64,000 bases of DNA from Spirochaetota bacterium (GTDB lineage Bacteria > Spirochaetota > Spirochaetia > Treponematales > Rectinemataceae), in assembly GCA_029778945.1 (NCBI GenBank), contig JAKPBN010000382.1:764-64763 (forward strand), in the 5' to 3' direction. Position 1 is the stretch's first letter; every line of letters begins with the position of its first letter. Shown here in pieces: positions 24,473 through 48,110 of the stretch. Below the pieces are notes generated by a model, which saw only the letters and a list, made by a program, of their open reading frames with translations, did no database searches and had not been told where the DNA came from. Both the position numbers and the translations under genes were made by a program.

Positions 24473-26518
24473 TTAGCGCAAGGGCTCATAGCGGAGGAAT
24501 TTAGCCTGGTAGGCCGCCCTCCCCTTCGTGGCCGACCGGAGCTCCGAGGCCAGGCCGAAAAGGAGGCGCAGGGGGGCCGCCGCCTCGAGGTATTTCTCGC
24601 CCCCCACGTCGTCGACGGACTCTATCCGCCCTCCCCGGGCCCCCAGGACGGCGACGGCCTGGCCCAGGCAGTCCTCGGGACAGCCCAGCTCCACCCGCAT
24701 CCAGGGCTCGAGGACCTGGGTCCCGGCCCTGGCCAGGGCATCCCGGGCGGCCAGGGAGGAGGCTATCTCCAGCACGAGGGCATCCTGGCGCCCTCCGGGC
24801 AGGGAAAAGCCCAGCAGCTTGGCTTCCCAATCCTCCACTGGCCAGCCTCCGGCCGGGCCGGCGGAAAGGCTCGCCTCCACCCCGCGGGTAAAGGCCTCTA
24901 TATAGGAGGCACTGGCCCGGAGGCCTGGCCCCAGGCCCAGGCGGTGGCCCCCGCCCCTAGGAAGGGGAGCCAGGGAGAGGTCGAGGCTGGCCCGAAGCCT
25001 CTCTCCGTTCATGGAGCGATCCAGGTCGCAATGACCATCCGCTGAATGAAGGAGGGTCTCCCGGTAGGAGACCTGGGGCGCCCCGGCCCGGAGCTTGATC
25101 CCCCGCTCGACCCGGAGCCTCTCCAGGGCAACCTCAAGGTGGAGCTCCCCCATGCCGGAGAGTATGAGACGGCCCGTCTCCCCGTCCTCCCGGAGCCTCA
25201 GGGAGGGATCCTCCTCGAGGAGGCTGGCCAGGGCCTCGGCCAGGGCGGCCCCCTCGGCCCGGCCGGGGCTTTCCAGGGCGAGAGAGACCACGGGCTCGTC
25301 AAAGCCCAAGGCCTCGTAGACCAGGAGGTGGCCGGGGCTGGAGAGGCTCGAGCCCGTCGAGCCGGGGTTGCCCTTGTTGGAGGCCGCCCCAAAGGAGAGG
25401 GCCGCTATGTCCCCGGCCCGGATGGACGGAAGGTCCTCCAGGGCCGAGGCCTGGATGGAGAAGATCTTCTGGACCCGCAGGGCCTGGTCCCTTCCGGCGT
25501 CTATCACCCTGTCTCCGGGCGCAAGGCTTCCCGACCAGACCCTCACCCAGGAAAGGCGGCCAAAGGAGGGATCGGCCTGGGTCTTGAAGACAAAGGCCGA
25601 GAAGGCCCCGGCCTCTTCGCAGGCGGCCCGGGCCGGGGCCCCGGTGGCGGGATCCAGGCCCTCGGGGCAGGGCCTGTCCCCGGGACTGGGCAGGTAATCC
25701 ACGATCCCGTCCAGGAGGAGGGCCACCGAGGCATCGGAGAAAGCCGAGCCGCAGAGGAGGGGAACCAGGCGGCCCGAGACCGTCGCCGCCCGCAGGCTCG
25801 CCCGCAGGGCCTCGGCCCCGACCTCCTGGCCTGCGGCGTAGAGGGCCAGGATAGCCTCGTCGGTCTCGGCCACGGCCTCGACCAGGGCCTCCCGGCCGGC
25901 CAGGGCCACAGGAAGGAAGTCCGGAGGAATGGGGAGGGCCCCGCCCCCGGAGGGCCGGGCCTGGAGCTCGACTAGGTCTAGGACGCCCTGGAAGTCCTGG
26001 CCCTCCCCCCAGGGCAGGCAGAGGGGGATGAGGCCGGGGACGAGGGCCTTGAGCTCCCCGGCGGCCTCGAGAAAGGAGGAGCCCCTCCGGTCAAGCTTGT
26101 TGATAAAGGCCAGGCGGGGCAGGTCCCTGCGGGCGGCGGCCCGGAGGACGGCCTCGGTCCGGGATTGGACCCCGGCCACGGCGCAGAGGACAATCACCGC
26201 GGAGTCCAGGACCCGGAGGCTGCGCTCCACCTCGGAGCCAAAGTCGATGTGGCCCGGGGTGTCGATAAGGTTGATCCCCCGGCCCTTCCATTCCAGGCGG
26301 ACGCAGGCGGCCTTTACCGTGATGCCCCGCTCCCGCTCCACGGGCAGGAAGTCCGTGGCGGTGGTCCCGGAGTCGACCGAGCCTGGGGCCCTGAGCCTCC
26401 CCGCCAGGAAGAGGATGCGTTCGGTGAGGCTGGTCTTGCCCGCGTCGATGTGGGCAAAGATGCCCAGGTTGCGGAGGATGCCTGAATCGCTGCCCATGAC
26501 CAGTACATTATAGTGCAT
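24473..26518 (-). CDS. Translational GTPase of the EF-G / ribosomal-protection (TetM/TetO-like) family, ~681 aa, in the position normally held by fusA.
   Basis: AHIDAGKT, DTPGH and NKLD motifs. The G2 region GSVDSGTTATDFLPVERERGITV resembles TetM-type GSVD.GTT.TD more than EF-G GEVHDGAATMDW. ATG chosen at 26516-18 (MHYNVLVMG). Confidence 0.75.
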   Translation of the reverse strand: MHYNVLVMGSDSGILRNLGIFAHIDAGKTSLTERILFLAGRLRAPGSVDSGTTATDFLPVERERGITVKAACVRLEWKGRGINLIDTPGHIDFGSEVERSLRVLDSAVIVLCAVAGVQSRTEAVLRAAARRDLPRLAFINKLDRRGSSFLEAAGELKALVPGLIPLCLPWGEGQDFQGVLDLVELQARPSGGGALPIPPDFLPVALAGREALVEAVAETDEAILALYAAGQEVGAEALRASLRAATVSGRLVPLLCGSAFSDASVALLLDGIVDYLPSPGDRPCPEGLDPATGAPARAACEEAGAFSAFVFKTQADPSFGRLSWVRVWSGSLAPGDRVIDAGRDQALRVQKIFSIQASALEDLPSIRAGDIAALSFGAASNKGNPGSTGSSLSSPGHLLVYEALGFDEPVVSLALESPGRAEGAALAEALASLLEEDPSLRLREDGETGRLILSGMGELHLEVALERLRVERGIKLRAGAPQVSYRETLLHSADGHCDLDRSMNGERLRASLDLSLAPLPRGGGHRLGLGPGLRASASYIEAFTRGVEASLSAGPAGGWPVEDWEAKLLGFSLPGGRQDALVLEIASSLAARDALARAGTQVLEPWMRVELGCPEDCLGQAVAVLGARGGRIESVDDVGGEKYLEAAAPLRLLFGLASELRSATKGRAAYQAKFLRYEPLR

Positions 26519-26583
26519 AGTCGCCCCGGCTTTGATATAGTATCGGGGTGGCGCCCGATGAGGGGCGGGCAAGGAGCGTCAAG

Positions 26584-27180
26584 ATGAAGGAACTGGCCAA
26601 TCTCGGATCCATGCCCCTGGAGGCCCTTAGGGAGCAGGTCCTGGACGACCTTGTCCAGCGCTATTCCCAGGAAGGGGTCACGATGGAGGACTTCGAGCGC
26701 CGGACCGGCCTCGCGACCCGGGCCCTCACCAAGTCCGAGCTCCTGGGGGCCATCGAGGGCCTCCCCGGCGAGGCTCCCGCCTATCCCAGCCCGGCCCCCC
26801 GGGCCTCGGCCACGCCCTCGACCTGGCGCTACAACGACAACCCCAGCCCCCGCCAGTCGGCCATGGCCATCTTTGGCGGCTTTGAGCGCAAGGGCGTCTG
26901 GAAGGCCCCCCGCCGGATGGAGAGCCTCTGCGTCTTTGGCGGAGGGGAGATAGATCTGCGGAGGGTCGCCATTCCCCGGGAGGGCCTCACGATCTCCACC
27001 TTGGCCGTCTTTGGCGGGGTGGATGTGGTCATCCCCCCGGACATGAGGATAGAGGTGGCGGGGATGGGCATCTTCGGGGGCTTTGACCACAAGCAGACCG
27101 ATGCCGACGATTCCGCCCCCCTGGTCCGCATCGAGGGCCTGGCGATCTTTGGGGGCGTAGGGATCAAGATCCGCGACTAG
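26584..27180 (+). CDS. DUF1707-like N-terminal domain plus C-terminal LiaF-like repeated FGG domain protein.
   Basis: SD AAGGAG 7 nt upstream of ATG 26584. C-terminus carries repeated (A/G)IFGG(F/V) motifs (MAIFGGFE, CVFGGGE, LAVFGGVD, MGIFGGFD, LAIFGGVG). Confidence 0.6.
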   Translation: MKELANLGSMPLEALREQVLDDLVQRYSQEGVTMEDFERRTGLATRALTKSELLGAIEGLPGEAPAYPSPAPRASATPSTWRYNDNPSPRQSAMAIFGGFERKGVWKAPRRMESLCVFGGGEIDLRRVAIPREGLTISTLAVFGGVDVVIPPDMRIEVAGMGIFGGFDHKQTDADDSAPLVRIEGLAIFGGVGIKIRD

Positions 27181-27200
27181 GACCCTCACGAGGAGGCGCC

Positions 27201-28016
27201 ATGGACCGGAAGATCGACATACTCGTCCTCGACGACAAGGAGGAGGCCCAACTCCAGGTCCGGGCCGCCCTCGACCTCGCCGGGGGCTACGAGGCGAAGA
27301 TCGACTGGGTGGCCCGGGGCGCCGACCTCGCTGGCCTGGGGGACAAGCGCTACGACCTGGCCTTCGTGGATTGGTTCCTGGACAAAGACAGGGCCTACGG
27401 AGTCGATTTCCTGGACCGCATCATCGCCGACTGGGTCGTGGGCTTTTCCTCGAACATCACCGCCTCGGAGCTCATCGAGAAGGCGGCCAAGACCCGGGGC
27501 TTCCGAGGCACCGCCTCGGTGGCCAAGCTCAAGGACGACAGGCAGAACCCCATGCTCGAGGCTTTTTTCCGGGCCCTCCCCGAGGGCAGGCCCGGCAACA
27601 AGCCCCTCTGGCTCTACCGCCAGTCCGGGGTCCTCCCCTTCCGCCGGGAGGCCGGGGGCCTCTCCCTCGTCCTCGTCACCTCCCGCAAGGACGGGGAATG
27701 GATCCTCCCCAAGGGGGTGGTCGAGCGGGGCGTGAGCCCCGCCGACTCGGCCCTCAAGGAGGCCCGGGAGGAGGCCGGCATCCTGGGGCGGATCGCGGGC
27801 CCCGAACTGGGGCGCTACCGCTATCCAAAATGGGAGGGAATCTGTACGGTGATCCTCTATCCCATGGAGGTCCTCCGGGTCCTGGACTCCTGGGACGAGA
27901 GGCTCCAGCGGAGCCGGGCCTTCCTCCCCCCGGAAGAGGCCCTCAAGGCGATAACGAACCCCGATATCCGAAACCTGGTGGCCCGCTTCCTGGAGGGGGG
28001 CCTAGCCCCAAGCTAG
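27201..28016 (+). CDS. Receiver (REC-like) domain fused to a Nudix hydrolase domain.
   Basis: N-terminus ILVLDDKEEAQ...YDLAFVDWFL is receiver-like. Nudix box PKGVVERGVSPADSALKEAREEAGI. SD AGGAGG upstream. Confidence 0.7.
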   Translation: MDRKIDILVLDDKEEAQLQVRAALDLAGGYEAKIDWVARGADLAGLGDKRYDLAFVDWFLDKDRAYGVDFLDRIIADWVVGFSSNITASELIEKAAKTRGFRGTASVAKLKDDRQNPMLEAFFRALPEGRPGNKPLWLYRQSGVLPFRREAGGLSLVLVTSRKDGEWILPKGVVERGVSPADSALKEAREEAGILGRIAGPELGRYRYPKWEGICTVILYPMEVLRVLDSWDERLQRSRAFLPPEEALKAITNPDIRNLVARFLEGGLAPS

Positions 28017-28031
28017 AGCGAGGTAAGAGCG

Positions 28032-28826: not shown

Positions 28827-28846
28827 GCCGCAGGGCAATAAAAAGC

Positions 28847-28875: not shown

Positions 28876-28881
28876 GGGGCC

Positions 28882-29094: not shown

Positions 29095-29107
29095 TCCAGT
29101 TCCACCC

Positions 29108-29728: not shown

Positions 29729-29784
29729 TCCGGGGAGTCGAGCTCATCGAGGCTGGCGTCGATCACCGGCCCGCCCCAAAAGCC

Positions 29785-30935: not shown

Positions 30936-30943
30936 AGGCTTAA

Positions 30944-32548: not shown

Positions 32549-32606
32549 GGTGGCCTCCTGTTGGTCTGGCCCTAGGATGGCCCGAGAAGCACACATAAGT
32601 AAAATC

Positions 32607-32625: not shown

Positions 32626-32663
32626 ATCATTTATTCTGATGCTACATCAAGGAGGGGGTGACG

Positions 32664-33533
32664 ATGGACCTCTTTGGATTGCGCTGCTTTGTGGAGATCG
32701 TCCGGGCCGGGGGCTTTACCCGGGCGGCCGAGGCCCTGGGCCGGACCCAGCCCGCGGTCAGCGCCCAGGTCAAGCGGCTCGAGGAAAGCCTGGGCGGTCC
32801 CCTCATAGACCGCTCGGCCCCGGGCCTTGTGCTCACCGAACTGGGCAGGCAGCTCCTGCCCCGGGCCGAGGGCCTCCTGGAAGGAATCGACGACCTGGAG
32901 AGGGAAATGCTCGCCGGGGATGGCCAGGCCCGAGGCCGGGTGACTATCGCCACAGGCCTCTCGGTGATCGAGGGCCTCCTGCCCGCCATCCTGGGCAGCT
33001 TCCGGGCCCGCCACCCTTTAGTGCGCATAACCCTCCTCAACCGTCCCGGGGAGGGCATCTACCGGGCCTTGCTGGACGCCCGGGCCGACCTGGGCCTGGG
33101 CTGGCTCCTTGGGCAGAGGCCGCGGATCCAGGCCGAGGCCATAGGGGAAGTCCGCTTCTACCTGGCCAGGAGAAAGACCCGCCAGGCCCGGGGCCAAGGC
33201 CGGCTCGAGGACCTCCTCGCGGGCCCCCTCCTGGCCTTCGAGAAGGGCATCGATCTGCGGAACTATGCCGAGGGAAGGCTCGGCCCCCTCGAGGCTTTTC
33301 TTGAACTGCCCAGCGTCGAGGCCCTCCTCCGCTATGCCGAGAGGGGCTTTGGGACCGCCCTCGTCCCCCTCCTCTCGGGGGTCCGCCAAAGCCCGGCCCT
33401 GGAATGGCTGGACCTTTCGGACACCGTGCCGCCCCTTGCCCTCGAACTCTACCGCCGGGAAGGTGCGCCCGGCTCGGCAGCCCAGGCCCTCCTCGTCGAG
33501 GCGATCCGACAGGGCCGGGACACCGGAGACTAA
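32664..33533 (+). CDS. LysR-family transcriptional regulator.
   Basis: N-terminal HTH (LRCFVEIVRAGGFTRAAEALGRTQPAVSAQVKRLEESLG). SD GGAGGGGG before ATG 32664. Confidence 0.85.
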   Translation: MDLFGLRCFVEIVRAGGFTRAAEALGRTQPAVSAQVKRLEESLGGPLIDRSAPGLVLTELGRQLLPRAEGLLEGIDDLEREMLAGDGQARGRVTIATGLSVIEGLLPAILGSFRARHPLVRITLLNRPGEGIYRALLDARADLGLGWLLGQRPRIQAEAIGEVRFYLARRKTRQARGQGRLEDLLAGPLLAFEKGIDLRNYAEGRLGPLEAFLELPSVEALLRYAERGFGTALVPLLSGVRQSPALEWLDLSDTVPPLALELYRREGAPGSAAQALLVEAIRQGRDTGD

Positions 33534-33625: not shown

Positions 33626-34981
33626 ATGAAAGCTAAAAAAACGGTGACCGACGCCAACCTGGACCAGATCGTGGATATTGAGAATTTCCTGATCCCCGAG
33701 ATGTCCAAGCGCGAGGCCGCCAAGGGCACGGCCAACTCCCTTGCCATCCTCCTGACCACCATTGTGCTTTTCTTTTCCACCAAGCTCGTCTCCTTCAAGG
33801 TCGCTGACATAGTCATCCTCATCCTCGTGCTGCTCTTTCACGAGACCGGGCATTGGCTGATGATGAAGGCCTTTGGCTATCGAGACGTGAAGATGTTCTT
33901 TATCCCCTTCTTTGGAGCGGCGGTCAGCGGGAAAGGCCGGAAGGAAAGCGCGGTCAAACGCTGCCTAGTCTCCCTCGCAGGACCCTTGCCGGGCATCCTC
34001 CTGGCCCTACTTCTCTACTGGCTTTTTAGCTTGACCAAGGATTTCCTCCTGCTCAAGACGGCAAAGGTCCTCCTGGCCCTGAACCTGTTCAACTTCCTTC
34101 CCCTGATGCCCATGGATGGAGGCAGGTATGTCGATGCCCTCTTCATGGAGCGGCGGGGCTTCCGCCTATTCTTCTCTAGCCTGGGCATCTTGGCCTTCCT
34201 CGCGTTTGGCGCGGTCAACCTAGACATCATCCTCGTCCTCGTGGGTCTCGCAACTCTCATTTCGGCAATTGGCGAATTCCGGCTGGGCGGCCTGACCCGG
34301 CGCCTCGCGGCCGAGGGGATCAGGCCTAGTTCCATCGCTGCCCTCCTGGAGGATCGGCCAAGCCTCCGGAGGACCCTCGTGGGACTCTACTCGACCACTC
34401 CCCGGGCCTTTGAGCCCGAGCCCATTGCCGCTAAAATCCACAATGGTCTTGTGTCGGTGGTGGACAACCTGAGGATTAAACCCGCCAGGGCCGCGGCCAA
34501 AGTAAGTCTCCTTGGCCTCTACCTCATCCTCCTCCTAGGCGCATCGGTCGCTACCTTCATCCTCATCGCCGCGGATCTCCAGGAAACCATGGTTACCCGC
34601 CAGATAGAGGGCCAGGCCGTCAATTTCTCCCAGCGCAGTCTTTTCAGGGAGCTGGCCTCCGAGATCCCCCTGGACGAAAAAGACCTCTACCATGGGAGAG
34701 GCCTGACCTTTTACGATGGGAAGACCGAACTGGTCGCGGAGGAGTTCTGGTACGACCATGGGATACGGGTGGGCACCTGGACGGATTTCAGCCGCCAGGG
34801 GCTGGCTACTCGTATGGAGCATTACTCCCAAGGGAGGCTCACATCCTTGGAGTCCATCGAGGACGGGGTCTGGAAAACCATGGCCGCCGGAGAACTCGGC
34901 TTTGGCCCACGACTAGAAGAGTGGATTCTAAGCCATGCCCGGCCACGGAAATCCCTTTACCAGGAATTCGCACAGAACTAA
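33626..34981 (+). CDS. Membrane zinc metalloprotease of the M50 (site-2 protease) type with C-terminal MORN-like repeat region.
   Basis: HExxH in a hydrophobic segment (LLFHETGHWLMMKAFG), multiple TM helices, and a C-terminal YDHGIRVGTWTDF...G repeat motif. Confidence 0.65.
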   Translation: MKAKKTVTDANLDQIVDIENFLIPEMSKREAAKGTANSLAILLTTIVLFFSTKLVSFKVADIVILILVLLFHETGHWLMMKAFGYRDVKMFFIPFFGAAVSGKGRKESAVKRCLVSLAGPLPGILLALLLYWLFSLTKDFLLLKTAKVLLALNLFNFLPLMPMDGGRYVDALFMERRGFRLFFSSLGILAFLAFGAVNLDIILVLVGLATLISAIGEFRLGGLTRRLAAEGIRPSSIAALLEDRPSLRRTLVGLYSTTPRAFEPEPIAAKIHNGLVSVVDNLRIKPARAAAKVSLLGLYLILLLGASVATFILIAADLQETMVTRQIEGQAVNFSQRSLFRELASEIPLDEKDLYHGRGLTFYDGKTELVAEEFWYDHGIRVGTWTDFSRQGLATRMEHYSQGRLTSLESIEDGVWKTMAAGELGFGPRLEEWILSHARPRKSLYQEFAQN

Positions 34982-35793: not shown

Positions 35794-35843
35794 GAGTCCT
35801 CCAAGCGCCCCATTCTGGGGCCAGGAACCGGGCCTGGGCAAGC

Positions 35844-37000: not shown

Positions 37001-37021
37001 GGCCCTCGGTTGGGGCAGGCC

Positions 37022-37573: not shown

Positions 37574-37598
37574 AGTTGCCCCTTTTAATCTCCGTATC

Positions 37599-38150
37599 TC
37601 ATTGGACAAAGACCTCGCCCTTTTCCGTGACCAGGAAGGAGGTCCTGCACTTTGTGCACCGGTAGAGGCCTGGGGATCTCACAAGGAGAGGGTGGGCGCA
37701 CAGGGGGCAGGGGAAATGCTTAGGGAAGGCCTGGGCGTCGCCGGAGGCTCCAGGGGACATAAAATGGTCCCGGGCCTCCGCCAGAGTAGCGGCAAAGTTA
37801 AAGTACTGGCTAAAGCCGATGAGGTCCAGGGTGGCCTTGGCCTTTGGGGCGCAGTCCAGAATGACAAGGTCGCCACCCAGGGGCTTGAGCCGCTTGCTCA
37901 GGGCGGTGAGGCAGCCGATCCCAGAGCTGGAGACAAAGCCCAGGCCGGCGGCGCCGAGGATGAGATTCCGGTAGCCGCCCTCGATGGCCTTCATGGCCCG
38001 GCCTTGGAGCGAAGCCGAGGTGTGGGCGTCCAAGTCGCCCACAAGCTCGATGAGGAGGCATCCCTCCAGGCCCGCGACAAGCTCGAGCCTCAGGGAAAGG
38101 CCGTCCCGCAGCTCGTCGTCAAAACCGGGCACAATGTCGTTGTTCGCCAT
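37599..38150 (-). CDS. STAS domain plus C-terminal zinc ribbon, copy 1 (VSSSGIG motif).
   Basis: ATG 38148-50 (MANNDIVPGFDD). C-terminus CPLCAH...CTKC. Confidence 0.7.
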   Translation of the reverse strand: MANNDIVPGFDDELRDGLSLRLELVAGLEGCLLIELVGDLDAHTSASLQGRAMKAIEGGYRNLILGAAGLGFVSSSGIGCLTALSKRLKPLGGDLVILDCAPKAKATLDLIGFSQYFNFAATLAEARDHFMSPGASGDAQAFPKHFPCPLCAHPLLVRSPGLYRCTKCRTSFLVTEKGEVFVQ

Positions 38151-38342
38151 GGCAATCCTTCCTTGCGTCCCGGGACCAGTCATAAAGCCCAAGCCTGGGC
38201 TCGCTCCGAAAGAAAGGATAGTGCAGGATCGTTGAATCGGCCATAGCAATTGAGAACCGGGCAGCAGGGAAGAGTAAGCCGCTTCCGAGCCGTCGTTGAA
38301 GCGAAAGTCCCGAAAATCCCAGAGGGGCAGGAGGGTCGGGAA

Positions 38343-40013
38343 CTAGTCCATTCTTTTAGGGAAACCCAGGGTCGCCATCGTTCCCGGCGCGGACCCAAAA
38401 GCGAGGCGGCCCCGGGCGCCGGAAAGAATCGTCTGTACCAGGGAAAGGCCCGAGAAGTCACCGGGAGGCTCATGTCCTGGGCCGTAGGGTCCAGGCAGGG
38501 CTCCGGGGGCTATCCCCGGGCCATCATCAGCTACCACGAGCTCGAGGTCGCCCTCGACCTCCCTGAGGGACACCCTTATCTCCCCGGCCCTGCCCTCGGG
38601 ATAGGCATGGCGGGCGCTATTGGAGACAAGTTCGGTCAGGGCGAACAAGAGGATCTGCTCGTACCAAGGATCGAAATCGCCCTGCAGCGTGGCGGCATAG
38701 TCGAGCCTGGCCTCGCTGTTCCAGATGGACAGGACTTCCCGAGCCAGGGCCCCCATCCTTGCCCCAAGGTCGGGGCTGGCCCAGGGGTGGAGCAGCCTAT
38801 CCATCAGGCATATCCCGGCCTCAAGAAAGGCGGTCTGCCTGCAGTGGGCGGTCCGCACCGCATCCCGGGCCTTCTCGGAGTCCAGGCCGGCCAGGGCGGA
38901 TGCGCAGAGCCGCTTGAGGAGGGCCTGGTCGGCGACGAGGGCCTCCCTGTACTTGACCAAGTCGGCTAGGCCGGCCTGGTTCATCCCGAAGCGGTTGGGC
39001 CAGTCCACATAGGCTTTGAGGATCTCTTCTGTAGAGGGAGGGAATACCATCCCGACCCCGGAGCGAGTGAGGGTCTCGACCAGCTTGGCTCTCTGTCCCT
39101 CCTCCCCACGCAGAGCCAGGACAAGACTATCCAGGCCCTGGCCCTCGATTGGGGGGATAGGCCCATACGACGGGGCATCCCAGGTCCAGGAGGACACTGC
39201 CCACGGGAAGACTACCCGTACCGAGCCATCCTCACCGGCTTCAAGCCGCGCGCCAAAGCCCTCCGCAAGGACGGCCGCCACCGAGCCCTTCCTTAGGGCG
39301 GCCGGGCACGGGGCACCAAGCCGGAGTTCCCCTCCTCCAGGTGTCCTTAGCACGATGAGGGGGATGGTCTTTTCCGGAGGGGAGCATTGTAGGATCTCCG
39401 CCAGGAGGGGGCCAAAGAGAAGGCATAGCTGTCTTGTGGCCGAAGGCCCTAGGGCAAGGTCCCCGAGCTCATACCTGATGGGCCTCTCTCTGCCTTCAAG
39501 GAAACCGGTCACGCTGGCTTCCACGGATTCCAGGAGATCCTGGAGCCTTATTGGGCGCCCGCCGAAGAGGGAGCCGAAGGAGTGGCGCTCCGCCTCCACC
39601 ATACCCATCAACGACGCCAGGAAGGGCAGGAGGGAGGACAGCTCGGGCTCAAGGCGCGTACTTGAGCCCTGGAGGGACAGGATCGACTGCCTAAGGGCAA
39701 TCTGGTTCTTAGCCCGGTGGCCCAGCTCGCGGGTGAGCATGTGCCTCTCCCGGATTCGTTCCTCATCAAAGCTGAAGGCTCCCTGCCTCCGGGCCAGAAG
39801 GAAGACTTGGCAGATGGTGAGATCCAGAACCTGACCCTCCTGAAGGGCAAGCTCGAGATCGACAAGGGCGAGGCCCTCCCGTCCAAGGGCTTCCCGGGCC
39901 GAACCTACAGCCACGAGCTCGAGGCCAGCCCCCTCAAGCAGGTCCCTGAGCCAGATCCGGTCTTTCTGCTCGGGCAAGAAGAGAAAAGCCTTGAGACCCT
40001 CGTTTTTTTCCAT
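38343..40013 (-). CDS. Hybrid signal-transduction histidine kinase (REC-like N-domain, HisKA_2-type H-box ELGHRAKNQ, C-terminal HATPase_c with N and G boxes).
   Basis: Motifs HMLTRELGHRAKNQIALRQ and ELVSNSARHA...DDGPGI...GLSLVQ. The first gene of the minus-strand operon ahead of the STAS triplet. Confidence 0.7.
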   Translation of the reverse strand: MEKNEGLKAFLFLPEQKDRIWLRDLLEGAGLELVAVGSAREALGREGLALVDLELALQEGQVLDLTICQVFLLARRQGAFSFDEERIRERHMLTRELGHRAKNQIALRQSILSLQGSSTRLEPELSSLLPFLASLMGMVEAERHSFGSLFGGRPIRLQDLLESVEASVTGFLEGRERPIRYELGDLALGPSATRQLCLLFGPLLAEILQCSPPEKTIPLIVLRTPGGGELRLGAPCPAALRKGSVAAVLAEGFGARLEAGEDGSVRVVFPWAVSSWTWDAPSYGPIPPIEGQGLDSLVLALRGEEGQRAKLVETLTRSGVGMVFPPSTEEILKAYVDWPNRFGMNQAGLADLVKYREALVADQALLKRLCASALAGLDSEKARDAVRTAHCRQTAFLEAGICLMDRLLHPWASPDLGARMGALAREVLSIWNSEARLDYAATLQGDFDPWYEQILLFALTELVSNSARHAYPEGRAGEIRVSLREVEGDLELVVADDGPGIAPGALPGPYGPGHEPPGDFSGLSLVQTILSGARGRLAFGSAPGTMATLGFPKRMD

Positions 40014-40061
40014 GCCCGCAAGTCTAGGCCTTGGCCCCGCCGGCCGCAAGGCTAATCTGCC

Positions 40062-41664: not shown

Positions 41665-42642
41665 ATGTTCAAGCTTCCGTTTTTCGAGGAGCTCGAGGGC
41701 TCACGCAGGATCCTCCTGGCCGGCTGTGGCGGGGGCTTCGACGTCTTTGGGGCCCTGCCCCTCTACTTCGCCCTCAAGGCCGAGGGCAAGGAAGTCCACC
41801 TCGCGAGCCTCTCCTTCTCCTTTCCCGACCTGGCCCTGCCCATCCTCTCCCTTCAGCCCGGCTGGAAGGGGCGGATCCTCACGCCCAACCTTGTCCGGGT
41901 GGACGCCGACACGCCGGAGTTCGCCCCCTACTTCCCCGAGCTCTTCCTCTCCCGCTGGTTCCGCTCCCGGGGCGAGGACGTCCCCCTCTGGTGCTTCCCC
42001 GTGAGCGGCGCCCGGCCCCTCGCCGCCTCCTACGGCCTCCTCTCGGAGAGGCTTGGCCTCGACGCCGTGGTCCTCGTGGACGGCGGAAGCGACAGCCTCA
42101 TGCGGGGCGACGAGGCCGACCTCGGCACCCCCTCGGAGGACGTGGCCTCCATGATCGCGGTCGACTCCCTCGACCTTCCAGTCAAGCTCCTGGCCTGCAT
42201 CGGCTTTGGCGCAGACTGGTTCCATGGCATCTCCCATGGCCGGGCCTTGGAGGCCACGGCCGCCCTCGCGGCCGCGGGGGGCTACCTCGGGCTCTTCTCC
42301 CTCCTCGACACCATGCCCGAGGCCAGGCTCTACCGGGAGGCCTGCGCCTATGTCTTCGAGCGCATGCCCGGCAGCGAGAGCATCGTCAACACCTCGATCC
42401 TCTCCGCTCTCGAGGGTCACTTTGGGGACTACCATGCCCTGAAGCGCACCAGCAAGGGCGGGCTCTGGATCAGCCCCCTCATGTCCGCCTACTGGTGCTA
42501 CAGGCTGTCCGCCGTCACGGGCCGCATGGCCTATCCTCGGGACAGCCTAGCCGAGACTGAGGGGATCATGGACCTCACGAGGATAATCATCGAGACCAAC
42601 CGCTCGGGGCCGAGACGGCCCCGGGTCGAGATACCCATCTAG
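41665..42642 (+). CDS. Conserved hypothetical protein (Gly-rich N-terminal LLAGCGGGFDVFGALPLY motif). Third gene of the ARH-Nudix operon.
   Basis: ORF only. No family assigned with confidence (possibly DUF1152-like). Confidence 0.5.
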   Translation: MFKLPFFEELEGSRRILLAGCGGGFDVFGALPLYFALKAEGKEVHLASLSFSFPDLALPILSLQPGWKGRILTPNLVRVDADTPEFAPYFPELFLSRWFRSRGEDVPLWCFPVSGARPLAASYGLLSERLGLDAVVLVDGGSDSLMRGDEADLGTPSEDVASMIAVDSLDLPVKLLACIGFGADWFHGISHGRALEATAALAAAGGYLGLFSLLDTMPEARLYREACAYVFERMPGSESIVNTSILSALEGHFGDYHALKRTSKGGLWISPLMSAYWCYRLSAVTGRMAYPRDSLAETEGIMDLTRIIIETNRSGPRRPRVEIPI

Positions 42643-43724
42643 GGCTGCAGGGCCGCGGCGATCGCCGGATGTGGGTTGGACAGGGCATGGACAAGGGCCG
42701 ACCTTCCGCCCTGGTCGACGGCGTTCAAATCAGCCCCGGCGGCCAGCAGGACACGAACAAGCTCGGGGTCGGAGCTAAAGGCGGCGGCGTGCATGAGGGG
42801 GGTCTTGCCGCTGGGACTTCGCTGATCGACCTCGGCTCCCGCCCTGAGGATTTCCCGGACCTCCCCCGGGCCGCCATTGCGGCAGGCCTGATAGAGGCCG
42901 CTTGCATCCCAGACCGCCCTTCCTGTTTTCCTCTTGGAAAGGACTAGCCTGAGCCTGGCTATGAGCTCGCGTTCGTTAAAAGGCTTGCAGATAAAGTCCG
43001 AAGGCCTGGTGAGGGCAGCCCGCCCCAAAGTCTTGCCATCGATATAGCTAGTGAGGTAGGCCAGGGCCGGCGCAAGAAACTTACCCATCTCCAAGGCGCA
43101 GTCAATCCCGTCCAAACCAGAGCCAGAGCCAAGATCGATGCCGGTGATCACGAGGGAGGGCCGCAGGCGCCGGGCCATGGAGAGGGCCTCCCAGGAGTCG
43201 GCGGCGATCCCGACCACCGGAAAGCCCAGCCTCTCGAGGCGCCGTTGAAGGTCTAGGGCTATAATTTTCTCGTCCTCGACGATCAGGACCTCGTTAGTCT
43301 CGACATCCGACTCCTGGCTGGCCGCGGATCCCCAGGACCGGGACTCCAGGGCCAAGAAAAGGCTCGAGCGTAAATCGCCCTCCTTGAAGGGCTTGAGCAA
43401 CAGGGCCGAAGGCCCGAAGGCGATGGCCCGGTCCAAGGTCGCGCTATCCGAAAATGAGGACAGGAGTATGACCGGGATCCCCAGGGCATCGCGAACCTCA
43501 TCGGCTGCCCGGATCCCGTCCCCTCCCCCGGCCAGCCGAGCCTCGGAGAGGATAAGATCGGGCCTCAGTTCCCGGGCCTTGTAGAGGACCCCCTCCGCGT
43601 AGGCCACCAGGCCGGCAAGCTCATAGCCAAAGCGCTCGAGCCTGCGCCCCAGGTCCAGGGCGATTCGCTCATCCGGCTCCGCGACGAGGATCCGCTTTTT
43701 CCTGACCAACTCCTGCTCAGACAC
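42639..43724 (-). CDS. Tandem receiver (REC-REC) domain protein with C-terminal ankyrin repeats.
   Basis: Two CheY-like folds (ILVAEPDE..., VLIVEDEKII...), then ANK repeats (GKTPLMHAAAFS...LLAAGADLNAVDQGGRSAL). Probable GTG start ~43724, just after the radical SAM stop. The first REC has Ser-Glu where the phospho-Asp is expected. Confidence 0.6.
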   Translation of the reverse strand: MSEQELVRKKRILVAEPDERIALDLGRRLERFGYELAGLVAYAEGVLYKARELRPDLILSEARLAGGGDGIRAADEVRDALGIPVILLSSFSDSATLDRAIAFGPSALLLKPFKEGDLRSSLFLALESRSWGSAASQESDVETNEVLIVEDEKIIALDLQRRLERLGFPVVGIAADSWEALSMARRLRPSLVITGIDLGSGSGLDGIDCALEMGKFLAPALAYLTSYIDGKTLGRAALTRPSDFICKPFNERELIARLRLVLSKRKTGRAVWDASGLYQACRNGGPGEVREILRAGAEVDQRSPSGKTPLMHAAAFSSDPELVRVLLAAGADLNAVDQGGRSALVHALSNPHPAIAAALQP

Positions 43725-45033
43725 GGTGGCCCCCGTCTTTAAGGTGGCCCGTGATCGCCGCCACCTCGCGGTTGATCCGCGCGACCGCCTCCCCGTCCCC
43801 AGCCTCAACCCCAGCCTCGTGCATCCGCTGGGCGACCATGGTCGTAAAGGCGCGCAGGGAGCAGGGATGGATACAGGTCGTGCCGAAGACCTCAGGATCG
43901 ACCAGGGGCAGGTAGTCGGCGATCCGACCCTCGGCATGGAGGCGATAGATAAAGGCATCCTGCATATGGTTGAGAATATCCACCATGGGCCGGAGGTGGA
44001 AATTGCCGTAGCCCTCCCCGCCCTGGGCTATCCGGCAGGTGGAGAGCTCGCCATTAGCCTTGAGGGTAAGGTGGGGATAGGGCCGATAAAAGGCCTTGCA
44101 GCGCAGGATCTCCGCGGGGAAAGCATCGAGGCTGTAGCCGATGCCACCGCCTTTGCGGGCCCCGTTTCCAATGTCTATAAAGTTGCTCACGATGTTTGTC
44201 TCGTCGGCGCAGAATCGCTCCATCGCGCCGTCGCTCTGCCCATAGAGCAGGGGAGCGAGGTCCAGCACGAGGCGAGCAAGCTCATCCTTCGGTCCCGACC
44301 TGGCGAGGAGAGACAGCCTCGGCTCAAGACTGGCTTCGCGCACCCTCCCCAGGCCCCCGACAACCCGGGCATAGAGTCCGGGCGAGCCCCGGGACCGGTC
44401 ATGGACGGCCTCGGGCCCATCGATACTAAAGACGACATGGCTTACCCCATGGTCGCGGAGGTCGTCGAGGTAAGCCCGATCATCCCGGTACCGTCTGCCT
44501 GCGGCCTCGAAGTCCTTCTCGCCCAGGAACCAGCCGTTGCTCAACACGCTGATGGTCTGGGCGCCGCGAGCCCTGATGCTGCGGGCCAGGCCGAGCCAGC
44601 CTGAGCCGAACTTCGACACCTCGCCGCCGGTAAAGGAATAGTTCGGGATGGCCATGTCGGCGAAGACGGCGGTCGCCGCGTCGAGGGCGGCCAGGTCGTT
44701 CTCGGTGCGCAGGCCTACCCCGGCGTTGTAGCAATGCTCGCAGGAGAGATTGCAGCACGTGGTGAATTCCACCACGACCTTTATCACGTTCTCAAGGGGA
44801 TTGCGCCGGTAGCGGAGGGCGATCGCGGCCTCGTCCACGGGCTCCTCGACGGCCTCGACCCAGGCCCGGGCCATGAGGTCTCTCTGGGCCCGACTGCCCT
44901 GCCAGGGCTCGTGGCCCCGCCCAAGGAGGGCGACCAGGGCCTCGTCGAGTCCGGGCAGGGGCGCACGTCCAGGCTCTTTTCTATCGACGGCGAGGGCCCG
45001 CCTGTGGCCGACATTGGTCAGGGCTAACTGCAT
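43717..45033 (-). CDS. Radical SAM domain protein (CNLSCEHC = CX3CX2C) with additional C-terminal Cys clusters.
   Basis: ATG 45031-33 with SD GGGGAGAA. Canonical radical-SAM cysteine triad. Confidence 0.65.
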   Translation of the reverse strand: MQLALTNVGHRRALAVDRKEPGRAPLPGLDEALVALLGRGHEPWQGSRAQRDLMARAWVEAVEEPVDEAAIALRYRRNPLENVIKVVVEFTTCCNLSCEHCYNAGVGLRTENDLAALDAATAVFADMAIPNYSFTGGEVSKFGSGWLGLARSIRARGAQTISVLSNGWFLGEKDFEAAGRRYRDDRAYLDDLRDHGVSHVVFSIDGPEAVHDRSRGSPGLYARVVGGLGRVREASLEPRLSLLARSGPKDELARLVLDLAPLLYGQSDGAMERFCADETNIVSNFIDIGNGARKGGGIGYSLDAFPAEILRCKAFYRPYPHLTLKANGELSTCRIAQGGEGYGNFHLRPMVDILNHMQDAFIYRLHAEGRIADYLPLVDPEVFGTTCIHPCSLRAFTTMVAQRMHEAGVEAGDGEAVARINREVAAITGHLKDGGHRV

Positions 45034-45171
45034 TTTGTTATTCTCCCCACGGAATCGAGGTCCGCAGGACAAAGCATATCCCCCCGGGAGGAGAGGCCGC
45101 AAGCGCATATCCGGCAATCCTTGTTCCCGCGACCTTGGCGCGATACAGTGGACTGTGGGGGAAAAATACAT

Positions 45172-46377
45172 ATGAAAACATCCGAGTACGATTCACCAGA
45201 AGAGGTCGAGTACGTGGACTATGTGGAGAGGAGGAAAAAGCTCCACGGGGCACTGTTCGAGACCGCCCTGCCCAATGAGTACCTCGTCGAGATCGGGCGC
45301 AAGAAAGTGGCTTTCCAGCTTGGAGGCCGGCGCTTCCGCCTTTTCCGGAAATTCATCCGCGTGCCCGCCTCGGTCCAGACCCTGCGCTTCGCCACGGACA
45401 ACGCCAACCAGGACTACCAGGGCATAGGCATCTCGGGCTTCGCCAACTGGCGCATCGACCCCGAGCATCCCGAGGTGGCGATCCGCACCCTCGACTTCTT
45501 TGACGAGAATGATCCCATGGCCCGCACCAACTCCGGCCTCAAGACCATCTGCGTCGAGGCGGTCCGCCATGTGATCTCCAACATGGACATCGACGATGCC
45601 CTCAAGAAGAAGGACGAGATCGCGGAGCGCCTCCGCATCCAACTCCAGGACGTCGAGAGGAAATGGGGCATCATCTTTGACCAGGTGGGCATCGAGAAGG
45701 TCCACATCATGTCCTCCCATCTCTTCGAGCAGCTCCAGTCCCAGTTCCGGGACGGCCTCCGCCTCGAGGTTGAGCGCAAGCGCATCGCGACCGACCGAGA
45801 GATCAGCCGGGAGGCCAATGCGGTAAGGGAGCTCACCGGCCTGGAAAAGCAGCAGACCTATGAGAAGCTCAGCCTCGCCCAGGTGGAGAGCCGGTCCCGG
45901 GTCGCCGAGACCCAGATCTCCGAGAAGCACCGGATAGGCCAGAGGCAGCGCGAGATCAATGGCGAGGCGATGCGGAGCGAGGCCGTCCTCCGGGAGGAGA
46001 AGCTCCGGAAGGAGAGCGAGCTGCGCGAGGTGGCCAATCGCCTGGCCCTGGAGCTCGCCGCGACAGAGTCGGCCAAGCTCGAGGCCCAGGCCCTTGTCGC
46101 CAAGCTCCGGGCGGCCCTTGAGGCCGAGCGCTTGGGTTCGGTCCGCCTGGAGCGGGAGGTCAACCAGACCTGGTCCCGGGAAGAGCTCGTCAGCGAGCTG
46201 ATCCGCCGCCTCCCCGAGACCTTCGCGGCCCTCAAGATCGACTCCTACAACGTCCTCTCCTCCGGCCAGGGCCAGGGAAGCCCCGTGGCCAGCCTCCTCA
46301 TGGAGATCGCCTCGGTCCTCAAGACCGTCGACCTTGGAGAGATCCTGGGCAAGGGCCAGGACAAGGAAAAGGCCTAG
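45172..46377 (+). CDS. SPFH/flotillin-like protein with long coiled-coil (second paralog).
   Basis: ATG 45172 with G-rich SD. Architecture is similar to 31454-32548. Confidence 0.6.
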   Translation: MKTSEYDSPEEVEYVDYVERRKKLHGALFETALPNEYLVEIGRKKVAFQLGGRRFRLFRKFIRVPASVQTLRFATDNANQDYQGIGISGFANWRIDPEHPEVAIRTLDFFDENDPMARTNSGLKTICVEAVRHVISNMDIDDALKKKDEIAERLRIQLQDVERKWGIIFDQVGIEKVHIMSSHLFEQLQSQFRDGLRLEVERKRIATDREISREANAVRELTGLEKQQTYEKLSLAQVESRSRVAETQISEKHRIGQRQREINGEAMRSEAVLREEKLRKESELREVANRLALELAATESAKLEAQALVAKLRAALEAERLGSVRLEREVNQTWSREELVSELIRRLPETFAALKIDSYNVLSSGQGQGSPVASLLMEIASVLKTVDLGEILGKGQDKEKA

Positions 46378-46379
46378 GC

Positions 46380-47867
46380 ATGGGCGAGAGCCAGGAATTC
46401 CTCAGGGTAGGCGCCATAGTCGGCCAGGACAACTGGGACTTGATCCATAGGGTGGCCCTCGAGGCACCTCGGTTCCCGGGCTTGCCAGGGGCAGGCTCCC
46501 TTGTCAGGCTCGAGGCCGAGGGCGAAGTCCCTCCGGAGATCGAGACCCTTGTCGTAGACCTCCATGCCTACCGCGACCTGGTCCATCTAGCCAAGCACTA
46601 CCGTCATTACCGCAAGCGGATCCTCTTCGTGGCCCAGACGCCCCAGGAGGAGCTGGGCCTCCTGGAGCTGATCGACCCCTGGGATGACATCGTCCGGGCC
46701 GATGCCTTGGAGGGCCAGCTGGTCCTCCGGATCGAGCGCCTATTGGCTGGGCCCTTTATGACCCGCGTAGACGTCCTCACCGGCCTATCCAACCGTAAGG
46801 TAGTCTTCGATATGGCCAAGATGGCCATAGAGGAAGGGGTCGATCCCGACCGGCCCCTCTCGGTCATCATGGTCGACCTGGACCACTTCAAGCGCATAAA
46901 CGACAGCTGGGGCCATGCGACCGGCGACGCCGTGCTCAAGGCGGCCAGCCGGGCCCTCGAGGCAGGCGCTCCGGACGCCGAGTGCGTGGCCCGGATCGGC
47001 GGGGAGGAATTCCTTGTCTTGCTGCGGGCCGACAGGGCCCATGCGAGATCAAGGGCCGAGGATCTTAGGGCCCAGATAGTCGGTCTTGCCATCGAGCCAG
47101 AGCTCCGCTTTACCGCCAGCTTCGGCGTCGCGACCGTGACCGCCCCTCCCAAGGACCTCGAGGAGCTCATCCTCGCGGCCGATCGCTGCCTCTACCAAGC
47201 CAAGCAATCCGGCCGGAACCGCGTTGTGGACGAGGCCGACTTCAACCGCAACGCCGAGGCAAAGGACGAGGACCCGGCGATCATCGACTTTGACAATCGG
47301 GTCAGGGTCCTTACGGACCGCCTCGCGGAATACCTCTCCCAGAAAGGAAGGGCCCTCGCCCGGGGTTACCAGGATGAGGCCGAGCTCGATGGCCTTACGG
47401 GCATCTACAACCGCCGCTATTTTGACCGGCGCCTCCCCCGGGAGCTCGAGCTCGCCCACAAGCCTGACCGGCCCCTCTCCCTCCTGTTTTTCGATATCGA
47501 TGATTTCGGGGCGGTCAACCGGAACTATGGTTTCCCGGCGGGAGACCGCTGCCTCAAGGCCGTCACCTCGGCCATGGCCAAGTCGGTCCGGGCCACGGAC
47601 TGGGTGGCCCGCTATGGCGGGGAGGAACTCTGCGCGATCCTGCCCGACACTCCCCTCGACGAGGCCGTGCCTATCGCCGAGCGGGTCCTCGAGGCTATCC
47701 GGGCCCTGGAGACGACGGCCGTGGATGGCCGTCGCTTTAAGGTCACCGCAAGCTGCGGGATAGTGGAAACCCGGGGCCAGGATGCAGGGGTGCCCGAGTT
47801 TGTCCAGCGCGCCTCCGACAAGGTCAGGGCCGCCAAGAAGGCCGGGAAAAACCGGGCGGTATCCTAA
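46380..47867 (+). CDS. Diguanylate-cyclase-like protein with two tandem GGDEF domains (GGEEF and GGEEL) and a degenerate N-terminal receiver-like region.
   Basis: RIGGEEFLVLL and RYGGEELCAIL motifs. 3-nt gap after the flotillin gene. Confidence 0.75.
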   Translation: MGESQEFLRVGAIVGQDNWDLIHRVALEAPRFPGLPGAGSLVRLEAEGEVPPEIETLVVDLHAYRDLVHLAKHYRHYRKRILFVAQTPQEELGLLELIDPWDDIVRADALEGQLVLRIERLLAGPFMTRVDVLTGLSNRKVVFDMAKMAIEEGVDPDRPLSVIMVDLDHFKRINDSWGHATGDAVLKAASRALEAGAPDAECVARIGGEEFLVLLRADRAHARSRAEDLRAQIVGLAIEPELRFTASFGVATVTAPPKDLEELILAADRCLYQAKQSGRNRVVDEADFNRNAEAKDEDPAIIDFDNRVRVLTDRLAEYLSQKGRALARGYQDEAELDGLTGIYNRRYFDRRLPRELELAHKPDRPLSLLFFDIDDFGAVNRNYGFPAGDRCLKAVTSAMAKSVRATDWVARYGGEELCAILPDTPLDEAVPIAERVLEAIRALETTAVDGRRFKVTASCGIVETRGQDAGVPEFVQRASDKVRAAKKAGKNRAVS

Positions 47868-47914
47868 AGACAAGCAAAGCCACGATATCCAATAAGGCTT
47901 TTGCGCCATAAATG

Positions 47915-47943
47915 AAAAAGCCGGCTTGCGCCGGCCTTTTCTT
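47915..47943. terminator. Bidirectional rho-independent terminator (AAAAA-GCCGGC-TTGC-GCCGGC-CTTTTCTT) between convergent GGDEF and rpsG units.
   Basis: Perfect 6-bp GC stem flanked by an A-run and a T-run. Confidence 0.7.
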
Positions 47944-47999
47944 AACAAGAGTCGCTGCTTACCAGCGATAGTGAGCGAAGAAACCTCTCACTAGTCAAC

Positions 48000-48027
48000 G
48001 CGATCCTTCGCTCTGGCGAAGGATCGC
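48000..48027. repeat. Perfect 12-bp-stem hairpin (GCGATCCTTCGC-TCTG-GCGAAGGATCGC) in the rpsG 3' intergenic region.
   Basis: Read directly. Confidence 0.6.
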
Positions 48028-48053
48028 TATGGCGAACAAAGCCTTTGCCCTGC

Positions 48054-48088
48054 AAATAAAAAAGCAAGGCCGGCAAAGCCGGCCTTGC
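48054..48088 (-). terminator. Rho-independent terminator of rpsG (11-bp stem GCAAGGCCGGC / GCCGGCCTTGC followed by UUUUUUAUUU on the minus strand).
   Basis: Read directly, 22 nt downstream of the rpsG stop. Confidence 0.75.
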
Positions 48089-48110
48089 CTGTACATCCAA
48101 GAGGTGAAAA

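Follow-up and report, generated by a model that had tools for sequence, protein, structure and literature searches.

Why do 21.5 kb of other genes lie inside the str operon of this spirochaete, and what kind of protein does the gene in the fusA position encode? The order rpsL-rpsG-fusA-tuf is one of the most conserved gene orders in bacteria. In the 64,000-nt stretch of DNA from a Spirochaetota bacterium of the Rectinemataceae analysed here (hereafter the window), open reading frames (ORFs), their translations and Pfam and NCBIfam matches place rpoB-rpoC-rpsL-rpsG at 57.2-48.1 kb and a gene for an EF-G-like protein, followed by tuf and rpsJ, at 26.5-22.6 kb, all on the minus strand and 21.5 kb apart. 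A preliminary description of the window had reported a split str operon with co-oriented halves and mixed-strand genes between them, and we confirm its coordinates and gene order. It had also read the EF-G-like protein as a TetM/TetO-like GTPase, and on this point our analysis leads elsewhere. We conclude with high confidence that the protein, here called the EF-G paralogue, is the positional fusA orthologue of its clade, and that it is neither TetM-like nor a canonical translocase. Taken as a whole, we find it reasonably probable that the locus combines a block of genes that grew by accretion with an EF-G paralogue in the fusA slot that has specialised in ribosome recycling.

The gene in the fusA position

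The approximately 75 closest homologues of the EF-G paralogue, at 45-63% identity, form one clade, with bootstrap recovery of its core in all 200 replicates (195 of 200 with the outlier P0076). Judging from source names, a few of them come from Rectinemataceae (Spirochaetota, Treponematales) and one from Treponema sp. In two genomes of the clade, L002 and L103, the order L7/L12-rpoB-rpoC-rpsL-rpsG-[EF-G paralogue]-tuf-rpsJ is intact. With rpsG and tuf as its immediate neighbours in both, the gene is the positional fusA orthologue and not an intruder. The idea that a foreign gene occupies the fusA slot is thereby contradicted.

The protein has the domains of an EF-G. Pfam detects GTP_EFTU, EF-G_D2, EFG_III, EFG_IV (weak, 30.7 bits) and EFG_C, and the GTPase motifs AHIDAGKT, DTPGH and NKxD (here NKLD) are intact. 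Both loops at the tip of domain IV are lost. In every aligned family member, loop 1, KQ(S/T)GGxGQ(Y/F)G, is replaced by FDRD(L/M/I)(G/N)GER, and in place of loop 2, SYH(D/E)VDSS, the family has S.P... at the corresponding position. As a sample of canonical EF-Gs we used the outcome of a profile scan of genome contigs with the family alignment, which picked the universal peptides AHIDAGKT and IDTPGHVD and so returned 80 generic EF-G loci, none of them from Rectinemataceae. Among 79 sampled EF-Gs from random phyla, HxVDS is present in 74 and HEIDS in one more; Treponema spdEFG1 and human mtEFG1 retain HxVDS as well.

Both loops are also lost in human mtEFG2, in a Treponema protein (L083:9908-12037) and in three proteins from metagenome-assembled genomes of Proteobacteria or Desulfobacterota (L010, L019, L020). 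The Treponema protein and these three are presumably of the spdEFG2 type, and none of the four genes adjoins rpsG or tuf. Conversely, rpsG is adjacent in 65 of the 79 sampled EF-G loci, all of which encode canonical-type loops. A loop-less EF-G in the fusA slot is thus unusual, as none of those sampled in other genomes belongs to the str operon.

The gene also evolves fast. Between the same pairs of genomes, in which tuf is 89-96%, rpsL 94-98% and rpoC 85-92% identical, the EF-G paralogue is only 50-63% identical. Its rate of nonsynonymous substitution (dN) is 4-10 times that of tuf, and the ratio to the synonymous rate (dN/dS) is 0.09-0.14 in the closest pairs. This low ratio indicates that the EF-G paralogue is functional and under selection, although it evolves rapidly. 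Distances within the clade (median 0.69) exceed those between canonical EF-Gs across phyla (0.55). The codon-choice log-ratio is -0.097 for the EF-G paralogue, compared with +0.114 for tuf and 0 to +0.11 for the ribosomal protein genes, and its tetranucleotide correlation is r = 0.82 with the block of intervening genes and r = 0.24 with tuf.

As one possibility, the preliminary description had proposed that the slot holds an EF-G2-type or divergent EF-G and not a canonical one. This agrees with the lost loops, the fast rate, the ordinary codons and the score against the NCBIfam EF-G model TIGR00484, 519.1 bits, which is below the equivalog cut-off of 659.4; no curated EF-G cut-off is reached. 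Of the alternatives it named, a housekeeping fusA elsewhere with an EF-G2-type paralogue in the slot is the more likely. The missing decoding-centre loops, the subthreshold score, the low identity relative to tuf and the absence of a ribosomal-type codon bias all set the protein apart from canonical EF-G (EFG I), with which it shares its best profile, sequence and fold matches, its position in relatives, the five domains and the G motifs.

Function of the EF-G paralogue

Loop 1 bears directly on function. Its glycines enter the decoding centre in translocation, and mutating loop 1 severely impairs elongation while leaving ribosome splitting nearly unchanged (10.1101/2020.12.20.423689). The mitochondrial protein mtEFG2, which has an altered loop 1, acts in recycling only (10.1101/2020.12.20.423689; PMC9067457). 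Spirochaetes have been reported to be without canonical EFG I and to divide its functions between spdEFG1, which has a KDG insert, and spdEFG2 (PMC3150367, PMC4342817, PMC9067457). This insert consists of three residues in switch I and is found in both spdEFG1 and mtEFG1 (PMC3150367). Wherever a genome has only one EF-G, this is reported to be of the canonical EFG I type (PMC3150367).

The EF-G paralogue does not have the KDG insert, which Treponema spdEFG1 and mtEFG1 show in the same alignment, and its loop-1 replacement resembles LDRTLGDKR of human mtEFG2, the shared motif being (F/L)DRx(L/M)(G/N)(G/D)(E/K)R. Since the insert is absent and loop 1 is replaced in the manner of mtEFG2, the protein would be a non-translocating, recycling GTPase. 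By analogy with spdEFG2 and mtEFG2 we slightly favour a function in ribosome recycling dependent on ribosome recycling factor (RRF). To judge from its sequence, the protein would have no role in bulk translocation, which would fall to a distinct spdEFG1-type translocase with its gene at another place in the genome. With spdEFG2 (Borrelia burgdorferi EF-G2) and mtEFG2 (GFM2) it has in common a spirochaete lineage, the full EF-G architecture with an intact GTPase, the lack of the KDG insert, the loss of GGxGQ and HxVDS, the similar DRxLG(D/G)(K/E)R replacement and a VDxGxTxTD-type switch I. It differs from them in its location in the str-operon fusA slot, in a much faster evolution of the window family, and in the lack of a specific grouping in neighbour-joining (NJ) trees with mtEFG2 or the Treponema loop-less EF-G; its recycling role and its spdEFG1 partner are ones that we infer.

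Several observations weigh against a recycling EF-G of the spdEFG2/mtEFG2 kind. NJ trees were bootstrapped with and without Dayhoff-6 recoding, and no sister group emerged: the family grouped with mtEFG2 in 1 of 200 bootstraps and with the Treponema loop-less protein in 3 of 200, and the positive control, spdEFG1 with mtEFG1, was recovered in 200 of 200. The trees contain only a weak split of the loop-less proteins plus TetM from the rest (124 of 200), which may be produced by long-branch attraction. When domain IV alone was used in a PDB search, it matched T. thermophilus EF-G at 52 bits and mtEFG2 at 28 bits, and part of the family retains both loop-1 glycines (GGER). No second EF-G gene came to light for this genome or for any other of the Rectinemataceae: an approximate spdEFG1-like query returned Treponema spdEFG1 only, the rest of the window's genome not having been searched. 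Finally, the sampled loop-less EF-Gs of other genomes are not located within the str operon. The family may therefore be an independent derivative of canonical fusA, formed in situ and with another function.

Such an in-situ derivative would not recycle ribosomes but could be, for example, a ribosome factor linked to stress or signalling and tied to the cyclic di-GMP (c-di-GMP) and partner-switch genes of the locus. In addition to the missing sister relation to mtEFG2 or the Treponema protein and the location of the other loop-less EF-Gs, this explanation draws on the outlier P0076, which has 45% identity to the other family members but 50-52% to canonical EF-Gs. A homologue search with P0076, meant to bridge to spdEFG2, found canonical EF-Gs only, at 47-52% identity. 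In two relatives (L087, L104) the EF-G gene moreover starts 11-34 nt after a same-strand gene cassette resembling SiaABCD, which is described below. However, signalling genes are not constant neighbours and are missing beside the gene in L002 and L103, the loop-1 motif is common to the family and mtEFG2, and recycling is the sole function experimentally shown for loop-altered EF-G paralogues, in spirochaetes and in mitochondria alike. We therefore regard this explanation, which survives best among the alternatives, as rather unlikely.

Could the protein instead be the sole EF-G of the lineage, a divergent and bifunctional fusA product that both translocates and recycles? The fusA position, the best profile and structure matches to EF-G, the intact GTPase, the presence of all five domains and the purifying selection would fit, and a second EF-G did not turn up, although the search did not extend to the rest of the genome. 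Against this stands the loss of both decoding-centre loops, including the histidine of HxVDS that 75 of the 79 sampled EF-Gs keep in some form. Neither a rate 4-10 times that of tuf nor ordinary codon usage is expected of a sole translocase. In addition, single-EF-G genomes carry EFG I and spirochaetes carry spdEFG1 together with spdEFG2 (PMC3150367), and Treponema, which belongs to the same order, has abundant spdEFG1. A sole EF-G is quite improbable on these grounds.

The TetM reading had its origin in the G2/switch region. The motif named there, GSVDSGTTATDFLPVERERGITV, is indeed present in the EF-G paralogue, and a manual count on the alignment gives 15 of 23 positions shared with TetM, GSVDSGTTATD resembling GSVDKGTTRTD of TetM. 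Human mtEFG2 and P0077, a Chloroflexi EF-G that retains all canonical loops, each share just as many, 15 of 23 (the references used for human mtEFG1, mtEFG2 and TetM are each identical to their PDB chain). Because mtEFG2 and P0077 match equally well, GSVDSGTTATDFLPVERERGITV does not point to TetM. Apart from the motif, the only observation in favour is the weak split mentioned above, in which TetM falls on the side of the loop-less EF-Gs.

All broader comparisons favour EF-G by a wide distance. The protein scores 317 bits against the NCBIfam model tet_protect (cut-off 775), 200 against tet_protect_M_W (cut-off 1100) and 161 against the Tet(M) model (cut-off 1420). The model NF009377 (EFG II, T. 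thermophilus EF-G-2 type) also remains below its cut-off, with 329 bits against 890, and PDB entry 1wdt matches at 271 bits. Among the PDB sequence matches, T. thermophilus EF-G reaches 451 bits, mtEFG2 345, mtEFG1 322 and TetM 181. A phylogeny, the check suggested by the preliminary description and built here with EF-G, mtEFG1, mtEFG2, spdEFG1 and TetM, left the sister group undecided as described but spoke against TetM: NJ distances are 1.0-1.2 to canonical EF-Gs and 1.84 to TetM, and the family grouped with TetM in 13 of 200 bootstraps. An AlphaFold2 (AF2) model with a predicted local distance difference test score (pLDDT) of 84 has T. thermophilus EF-G as its best fold match at a template modelling (TM) score of 0.82, and no Tet structure is among its top 50 fold matches. 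In the loop-2 region of domain IV the family has S.P.. where TetM has YYSPVS. The likeness to Tet(M)/Tet(O) thus amounts to membership in the EF-G superfamily of translational GTPases and a similar short switch-I motif, and the window gene is vertically inherited at a core locus as the positional fusA orthologue, not transposon-borne. That fusA was displaced by a gene for a ribosomal protection protein of the TetM/TetO type, or for a close relation of one, is an explanation to which we give next to no credence.

The junction between rpsG and the EF-G gene

On the minus strand, rpsG is followed by a strong intrinsic terminator with a 13-bp stem and a T-run (48090..48062); the convergent GGDEF gene is served by another GC hairpin, also with T-runs (47920-47935). 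In all, the rpsG side holds five terminator-like sites where 1.7 are expected. The hairpin cluster named in the preliminary description is a tandem array of two modules. A module is made up of about 35 nt from the end of rpsG, a terminator rich in GC and the ANKAFA codons in inverted form. The array holds the real rpsG end (48143-48111), the terminator and an inverted ANKAFA-codon copy (48048-48032), and further on a pseudo-copy of HYRW* (47973-47959), the second hairpin and a second inverted copy (47904-47888). Relatives have it as well (L087:5785-6058, L089:1-560, L090:2740-3340, L103:9762-9900), with two or three module copies in L087, L089 and L090. From genome to genome the inverted copy follows rpsG in its choice of synonymous codons. 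In the RNAalifold prediction it pairs with the rpsG codons upstream of it in a 15-bp stem that encloses the stop codon and the terminator, with compensatory changes on both sides at 5 of the 15 pairs. The array could be a processing site, a stabilising or insulating 3′-end element, or a recombination scar. No Rfam family was found in the block junctions, the array included.

Of the genomes examined, only L087 and L104 lack a strong intrinsic terminator after rpsG; both genomes with intact gene order have one. On the other side of the junction, a TATAAT -10 box is predicted at 26507..26512 on the minus strand, 9 nt ahead of an in-frame ATG at 26497. A layout of this kind, with TATACT, TATAAT or TATTAT 6-9 nt before an in-frame start that lies 13-15 codons ahead of AHIDAGKT, is present in 8 of 12 genomes (the window, L103, L102, L107, L085, L089, L090 and L104), without a Shine-Dalgarno sequence. 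This suggests a leaderless mRNA for the EF-G paralogue, and it suggests that the true start is Met8 of the annotated protein, the annotated start at 26518 being seven codons too far upstream. Two points count against this promoter: a consensus promoter scan found none upstream of the EF-G gene, the -10/ATG layout having emerged from the genome comparison, and promoters and terminators alike are sequence predictions only. Given the conserved terminator, the EF-G promoter and the promoter-like site ahead of tuf, the rpoBC-rpsL-rpsG and EF-G-tuf units would have been separate before any insertion. The gap between terminator and promoter would therefore be permissive for insertion.

We compared the interval from rpsG to the EF-G gene in 12 genomes of the clade, the window counted among them; a metagenome scan for relatives contributed three relevant loci. 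The gap is 0.2 kb without intervening genes in L002 and L103. It is 4.2 kb in L087 and L104, where a co-oriented HAMP-SpoIIE/DUF6272/SiaC/GGDEF (SiaABCD-like) cassette ends 11-34 nt ahead of the EF-G gene. A core of an acyltransferase and a LiaF-like gene is found in L105 (3.0 kb, one additional gene), L106 (3.6 kb, two) and L107 (5.3 kb, four). Larger sets occupy the gap in L090 (7.2 kb, including the LiaF-like gene), in L089 (~10 kb, with LysR, radical SAM, tandem GGDEF, M3 peptidase, SIR2, LiaF-like and Na/H exchanger genes) and in L085 (>10 kb, rpsG lying outside the flank). In L102 (>12 kb) the SiaABCD-like cassette is accompanied by a set colinear with the window, which has the largest version seen, 21.5 kb with 23 genes. 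Separately, in L105 (L105:4499-5944, the genome of P0074) a gene for a 481-aa beta-propeller-like protein lies on the opposite strand and separates rpoC from rpsL, so that the conserved cluster has another permissive junction in this clade.

The rpsG/EF-G junction is thus interrupted in 10 of the 12 genomes, by 3-21.5 kb, and the content is nested and partly colinear. The genes shared in order between L102 and the window are those for LiaF-like, acyltransferase, DSP, nitroreductase, CYTH, ARH, NrtR and DUF1152 proteins, at 57-82% identity; the LysR and tandem GGDEF genes of the window are also at the locus in L089 and L091. Because ten genomes are interrupted at the same point with nested and partly colinear content, the block is old and has grown by accretion. 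In composition it is native, with tetranucleotide correlations of r = 0.83-0.86 to other non-ribosomal DNA of the window and ordinary codon usage (codon-choice log-ratio -0.01 to -0.13). We consider it highly probable that the block is an old, vertically inherited variable region between a terminator and a promoter, enlarged by accretion, and not a mobile island. The suggestion of an old, domesticated insertion fits this result. The preliminary description had set against an insertion the case of an orthologous EF-G next to a 21-kb block shared by relatives; the EF-G proves orthologous by position, and the block proves ancestral in part.

A recently acquired genomic island, obtained by horizontal gene transfer (HGT), or a defence island would account for the absence of the block from L002 and L103 and for the highly variable content of the site. 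A few PADLOC matches could also be read in this way (an exonuclease effector-like protein and a PycC-like cyclase in the window; SIR2 and Apyc1-like proteins in relatives). But no integrase or transposase domain was found in the 23 block genes, as the preliminary description had noted for such genes, there is no tRNA near the block borders (the only tRNAs of the window are at 60.8 and 61.4 kb), and no direct or att repeats linking both borders were found. The tetranucleotide and codon signatures equal those of the other non-ribosomal genes of the window. At least eight genes are colinear with L102 and others with L089 and L091, and their amino acid identity of 57-82% is far under the 94-96% that tuf shows there, which is what ordinary genes diverging along with these genomes would give. 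PADLOC, applied to 20 block proteins, gave isolated matches only and no complete known defence system. A recent HGT or defence island is very improbable.

With hot spots between core genes, the site has in common a differing gene content at a fixed position with conserved flanks in the 12 genomes. It differs from them in lying inside the normally invariant rpsL-rpsG-fusA-tuf cluster and in being marked by tandem copies of the rpsG 3′ end and terminator.

Gene content of the block and meaning of the locus

The 23 genes of the block (26.58-47.87 kb), 11 on the plus strand and 12 on the minus strand, are listed in Table 1 together with the flanking genes. The majority have Pfam domains of signalling or nucleotide metabolism. 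The most widely shared is the LiaF-like gene, found at the locus with 57-59% identity in L085, L089-L091 and L102; a LiaF-like_C/DUF1707 gene is at the same position in L105-L107, and the LiaF-like protein of the window is 99.5% identical to the L095 copy. The locus is also rich in NAD/ADP-ribose enzymes: in addition to the ARH-NrtR-DUF1152 trio, the order of which is conserved in L102 (L102:2423-4461), there are two further NUDIX/CYTH genes, and SIR2 in L085 and L089. The ORF of the REC-REC-ankyrin protein overlaps the radical SAM gene, and its real start is probably further downstream. The 194-aa protein with a PADLOC match is encoded downstream of the SPFH, CYTH and nitroreductase genes.

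Table 1. Features of the split str operon and the intervening block, in descending order of position in the window.
Feature	Position	Strand	Basis
rpoB	53728..57219	-	1163-aa ORF; orthologues in relatives at same position with RNA_pol_Rpb2 domains
rpoC	49120..53484	-	1454-aa ORF; 85-92% identity to rpoC of relatives
rpsL (S12)	48594..48968	-	Pfam Ribosom_S12_S23, 142 bits
rpsG (S7), final gene of upstream transcription unit	48111..48581	-	Translation; 87-92% identity to S7 of relatives
Tandem array of two rpsG 3′ end + terminator modules	47868..48145	-	Sequence comparison, RNAalifold
Tandem-GGDEF diguanylate cyclase-like protein, convergent with rpsG	46380..47867	+	PF00990, 264 bits, two stretches; 65% identical orthologue at same locus in L089 and L091
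SPFH/Band 7 protein	45121..46377	+	PF01145, 56.5 bits
Radical SAM protein	43717..45171	-	PF04055; weak NCBIfam rSAM/SPASM matches
REC-REC-ankyrin response regulator	42639..43958	-	PF00072, 85.7 bits, and Ank repeats
DUF1152 protein	41665-42642	+	Pfam; 72% identical in L102 (fragment)
NrtR Nudix/wHTH regulator	40951-41637	+	Pfam; 82% identical in L102
ADP-ribosylglycohydrolase (ARH)	40122-40940	+	Pfam; 71% identical in L102
HATPase_c kinase, 568 aa	38343-40049	-	Pfam
Three paralogous STAS proteins	37599-38249, 37022-37609, 36440-37000	-	Pfam; paralogy at 577-582-nt spacing
DSP-like phosphatase	35844-36491	-	Pfam
Class III nucleotidyl-cyclase-like protein	34996-35841	-	PADLOC PycC, 42.7 bits; PDB CyaB 3r5g, E=7.6e-9
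M50 membrane metalloprotease	33626..34981	+	PF02163
LysR-type regulator	32658..33533	+	PF00126 and PF03466; 57-60% identical orthologue at locus in L089 and L091
SPFH/Band 7 protein, second	31454-32596	-	Pfam
CYTH protein	30944-31432	-	Pfam; 70% identical in L102
Nitroreductase	30366-31049	-	Pfam; 81% identical in L102
194-aa protein	29785-30369	-	PADLOC 'Effector/Exonuclease' profile, 88.6 bits over full length; no match in Pfam/NCBIfam
DSP-like phosphatase, second	29108-29728	+	Pfam
PlsC-type acyltransferase	28032-28826	+	Pfam; 75% identical in L102; adjoins LiaF-like gene in L105-L107
NUDIX protein	27201-28016	+	Pfam
LiaF-like/DUF1707 protein, divergent from EF-G gene	26584..27180	+	Start ATG 26584, AAGGAG 8 nt upstream
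EF-G paralogue, fusA position	24473..26518/26572	-	P0001, 681 aa from ATG 26518; probably 674 aa from ATG 26497
Promoter-like site TGCACA-16-TATACT, EF-G/tuf spacer	24413..24440	-	Sequence prediction
tuf (EF-Tu)	23169..24359	-	NCBIfam EF-Tu, 740 bits
rpsJ (S10), heads S10 operon; S10/spc genes continue	22596..22919	-	PF00338, 129.6 bits

Within the block, the kinase, the three STAS proteins, the phosphatase and the cyclase-like protein form a six-gene cluster on the minus strand (34996..40049), which resembles a module for partner switching whose output would be a cyclase. If it is one, the cluster would be a non-orthologous analogue of the SiaABCD-like cassette that relatives have at the same locus (L087:6059-9989, L104:6033-9966, L102:1-2238). 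This cassette keeps the HAMP-SpoIIE, DUF6272, SiaC-family, GGDEF order of SiaABCD of Pseudomonas aeruginosa (PMC7647112, PMC8457831), and in L087 and L104 it appears to be inserted downstream of the TATACT promoter that would drive the EF-G gene in the intact genomes. The window, by comparison, has no homologues of SiaA-C and only GGDEF-domain similarity; its module relies on STAS proteins and a DSP-like phosphatase, and its output is class III cyclase-like.

We propose the following explanation for the locus. With rpsG ending in a strong intrinsic terminator and the EF-G gene having a promoter of its own that gives a leaderless mRNA, the short gap between them would be transcriptionally neutral, and genes could accumulate there. 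The minimal insert was likely either the acyltransferase with the LiaF-like gene or the SiaABCD-like cassette. Accretion and rearrangement in the lineage of the window would then have led to 23 genes, mostly for partner-switch and second-messenger signalling and for NAD/ADP-ribose enzymes. Independently of the block, the positional fusA orthologue would have turned into a specialised EF-G paralogue that kept the five-domain fold and the GTPase motifs. Such a protein should still bind the ribosome and hydrolyse GTP but would have lost the domain IV tips that enter the decoding centre. Together with RRF it would split post-termination ribosomes, and an spdEFG1-type translocase encoded elsewhere would serve translocation.

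A bolder reading, which we hold to be unlikely, is that the gene for the non-translocating specialist EF-G descends in place from the original str-operon fusA and not from a duplicate that had moved, and that its leaderless promoter region repeatedly captured second-messenger and partner-switch cassettes. The captured cassettes would be the SiaABCD-like one, upstream and co-oriented, in some genomes and the kinase-STAS-phosphatase-cyclase cluster with the tandem GGDEF gene in the window. In its more extreme version, the loop-less protein would be the only EF-G of the lineage, as weighed above. If fusA itself did specialise, a recycling or ribosome-state factor and the expression of the downstream tuf would be wired to c-di-GMP and partner-switch signalling.

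For the accretion-grown block and the EF-G paralogue as we describe them, the finding means that one clade tolerates 3-21.5 kb of unrelated genes inside a highly conserved cluster, for which the pre-existing gap between terminator and promoter offers a reason. It also provides positional evidence on how paralogues of EF-G come about, as it is the str-operon copy that lost its translocation loops and sped up, and this is relevant to the question of how spirochaetes and mitochondria came by their recycling-only EF-G2 forms. For annotation, neither the label "elongation factor G" nor a motif-based "TetM-like" label should pass to this EF-G family.

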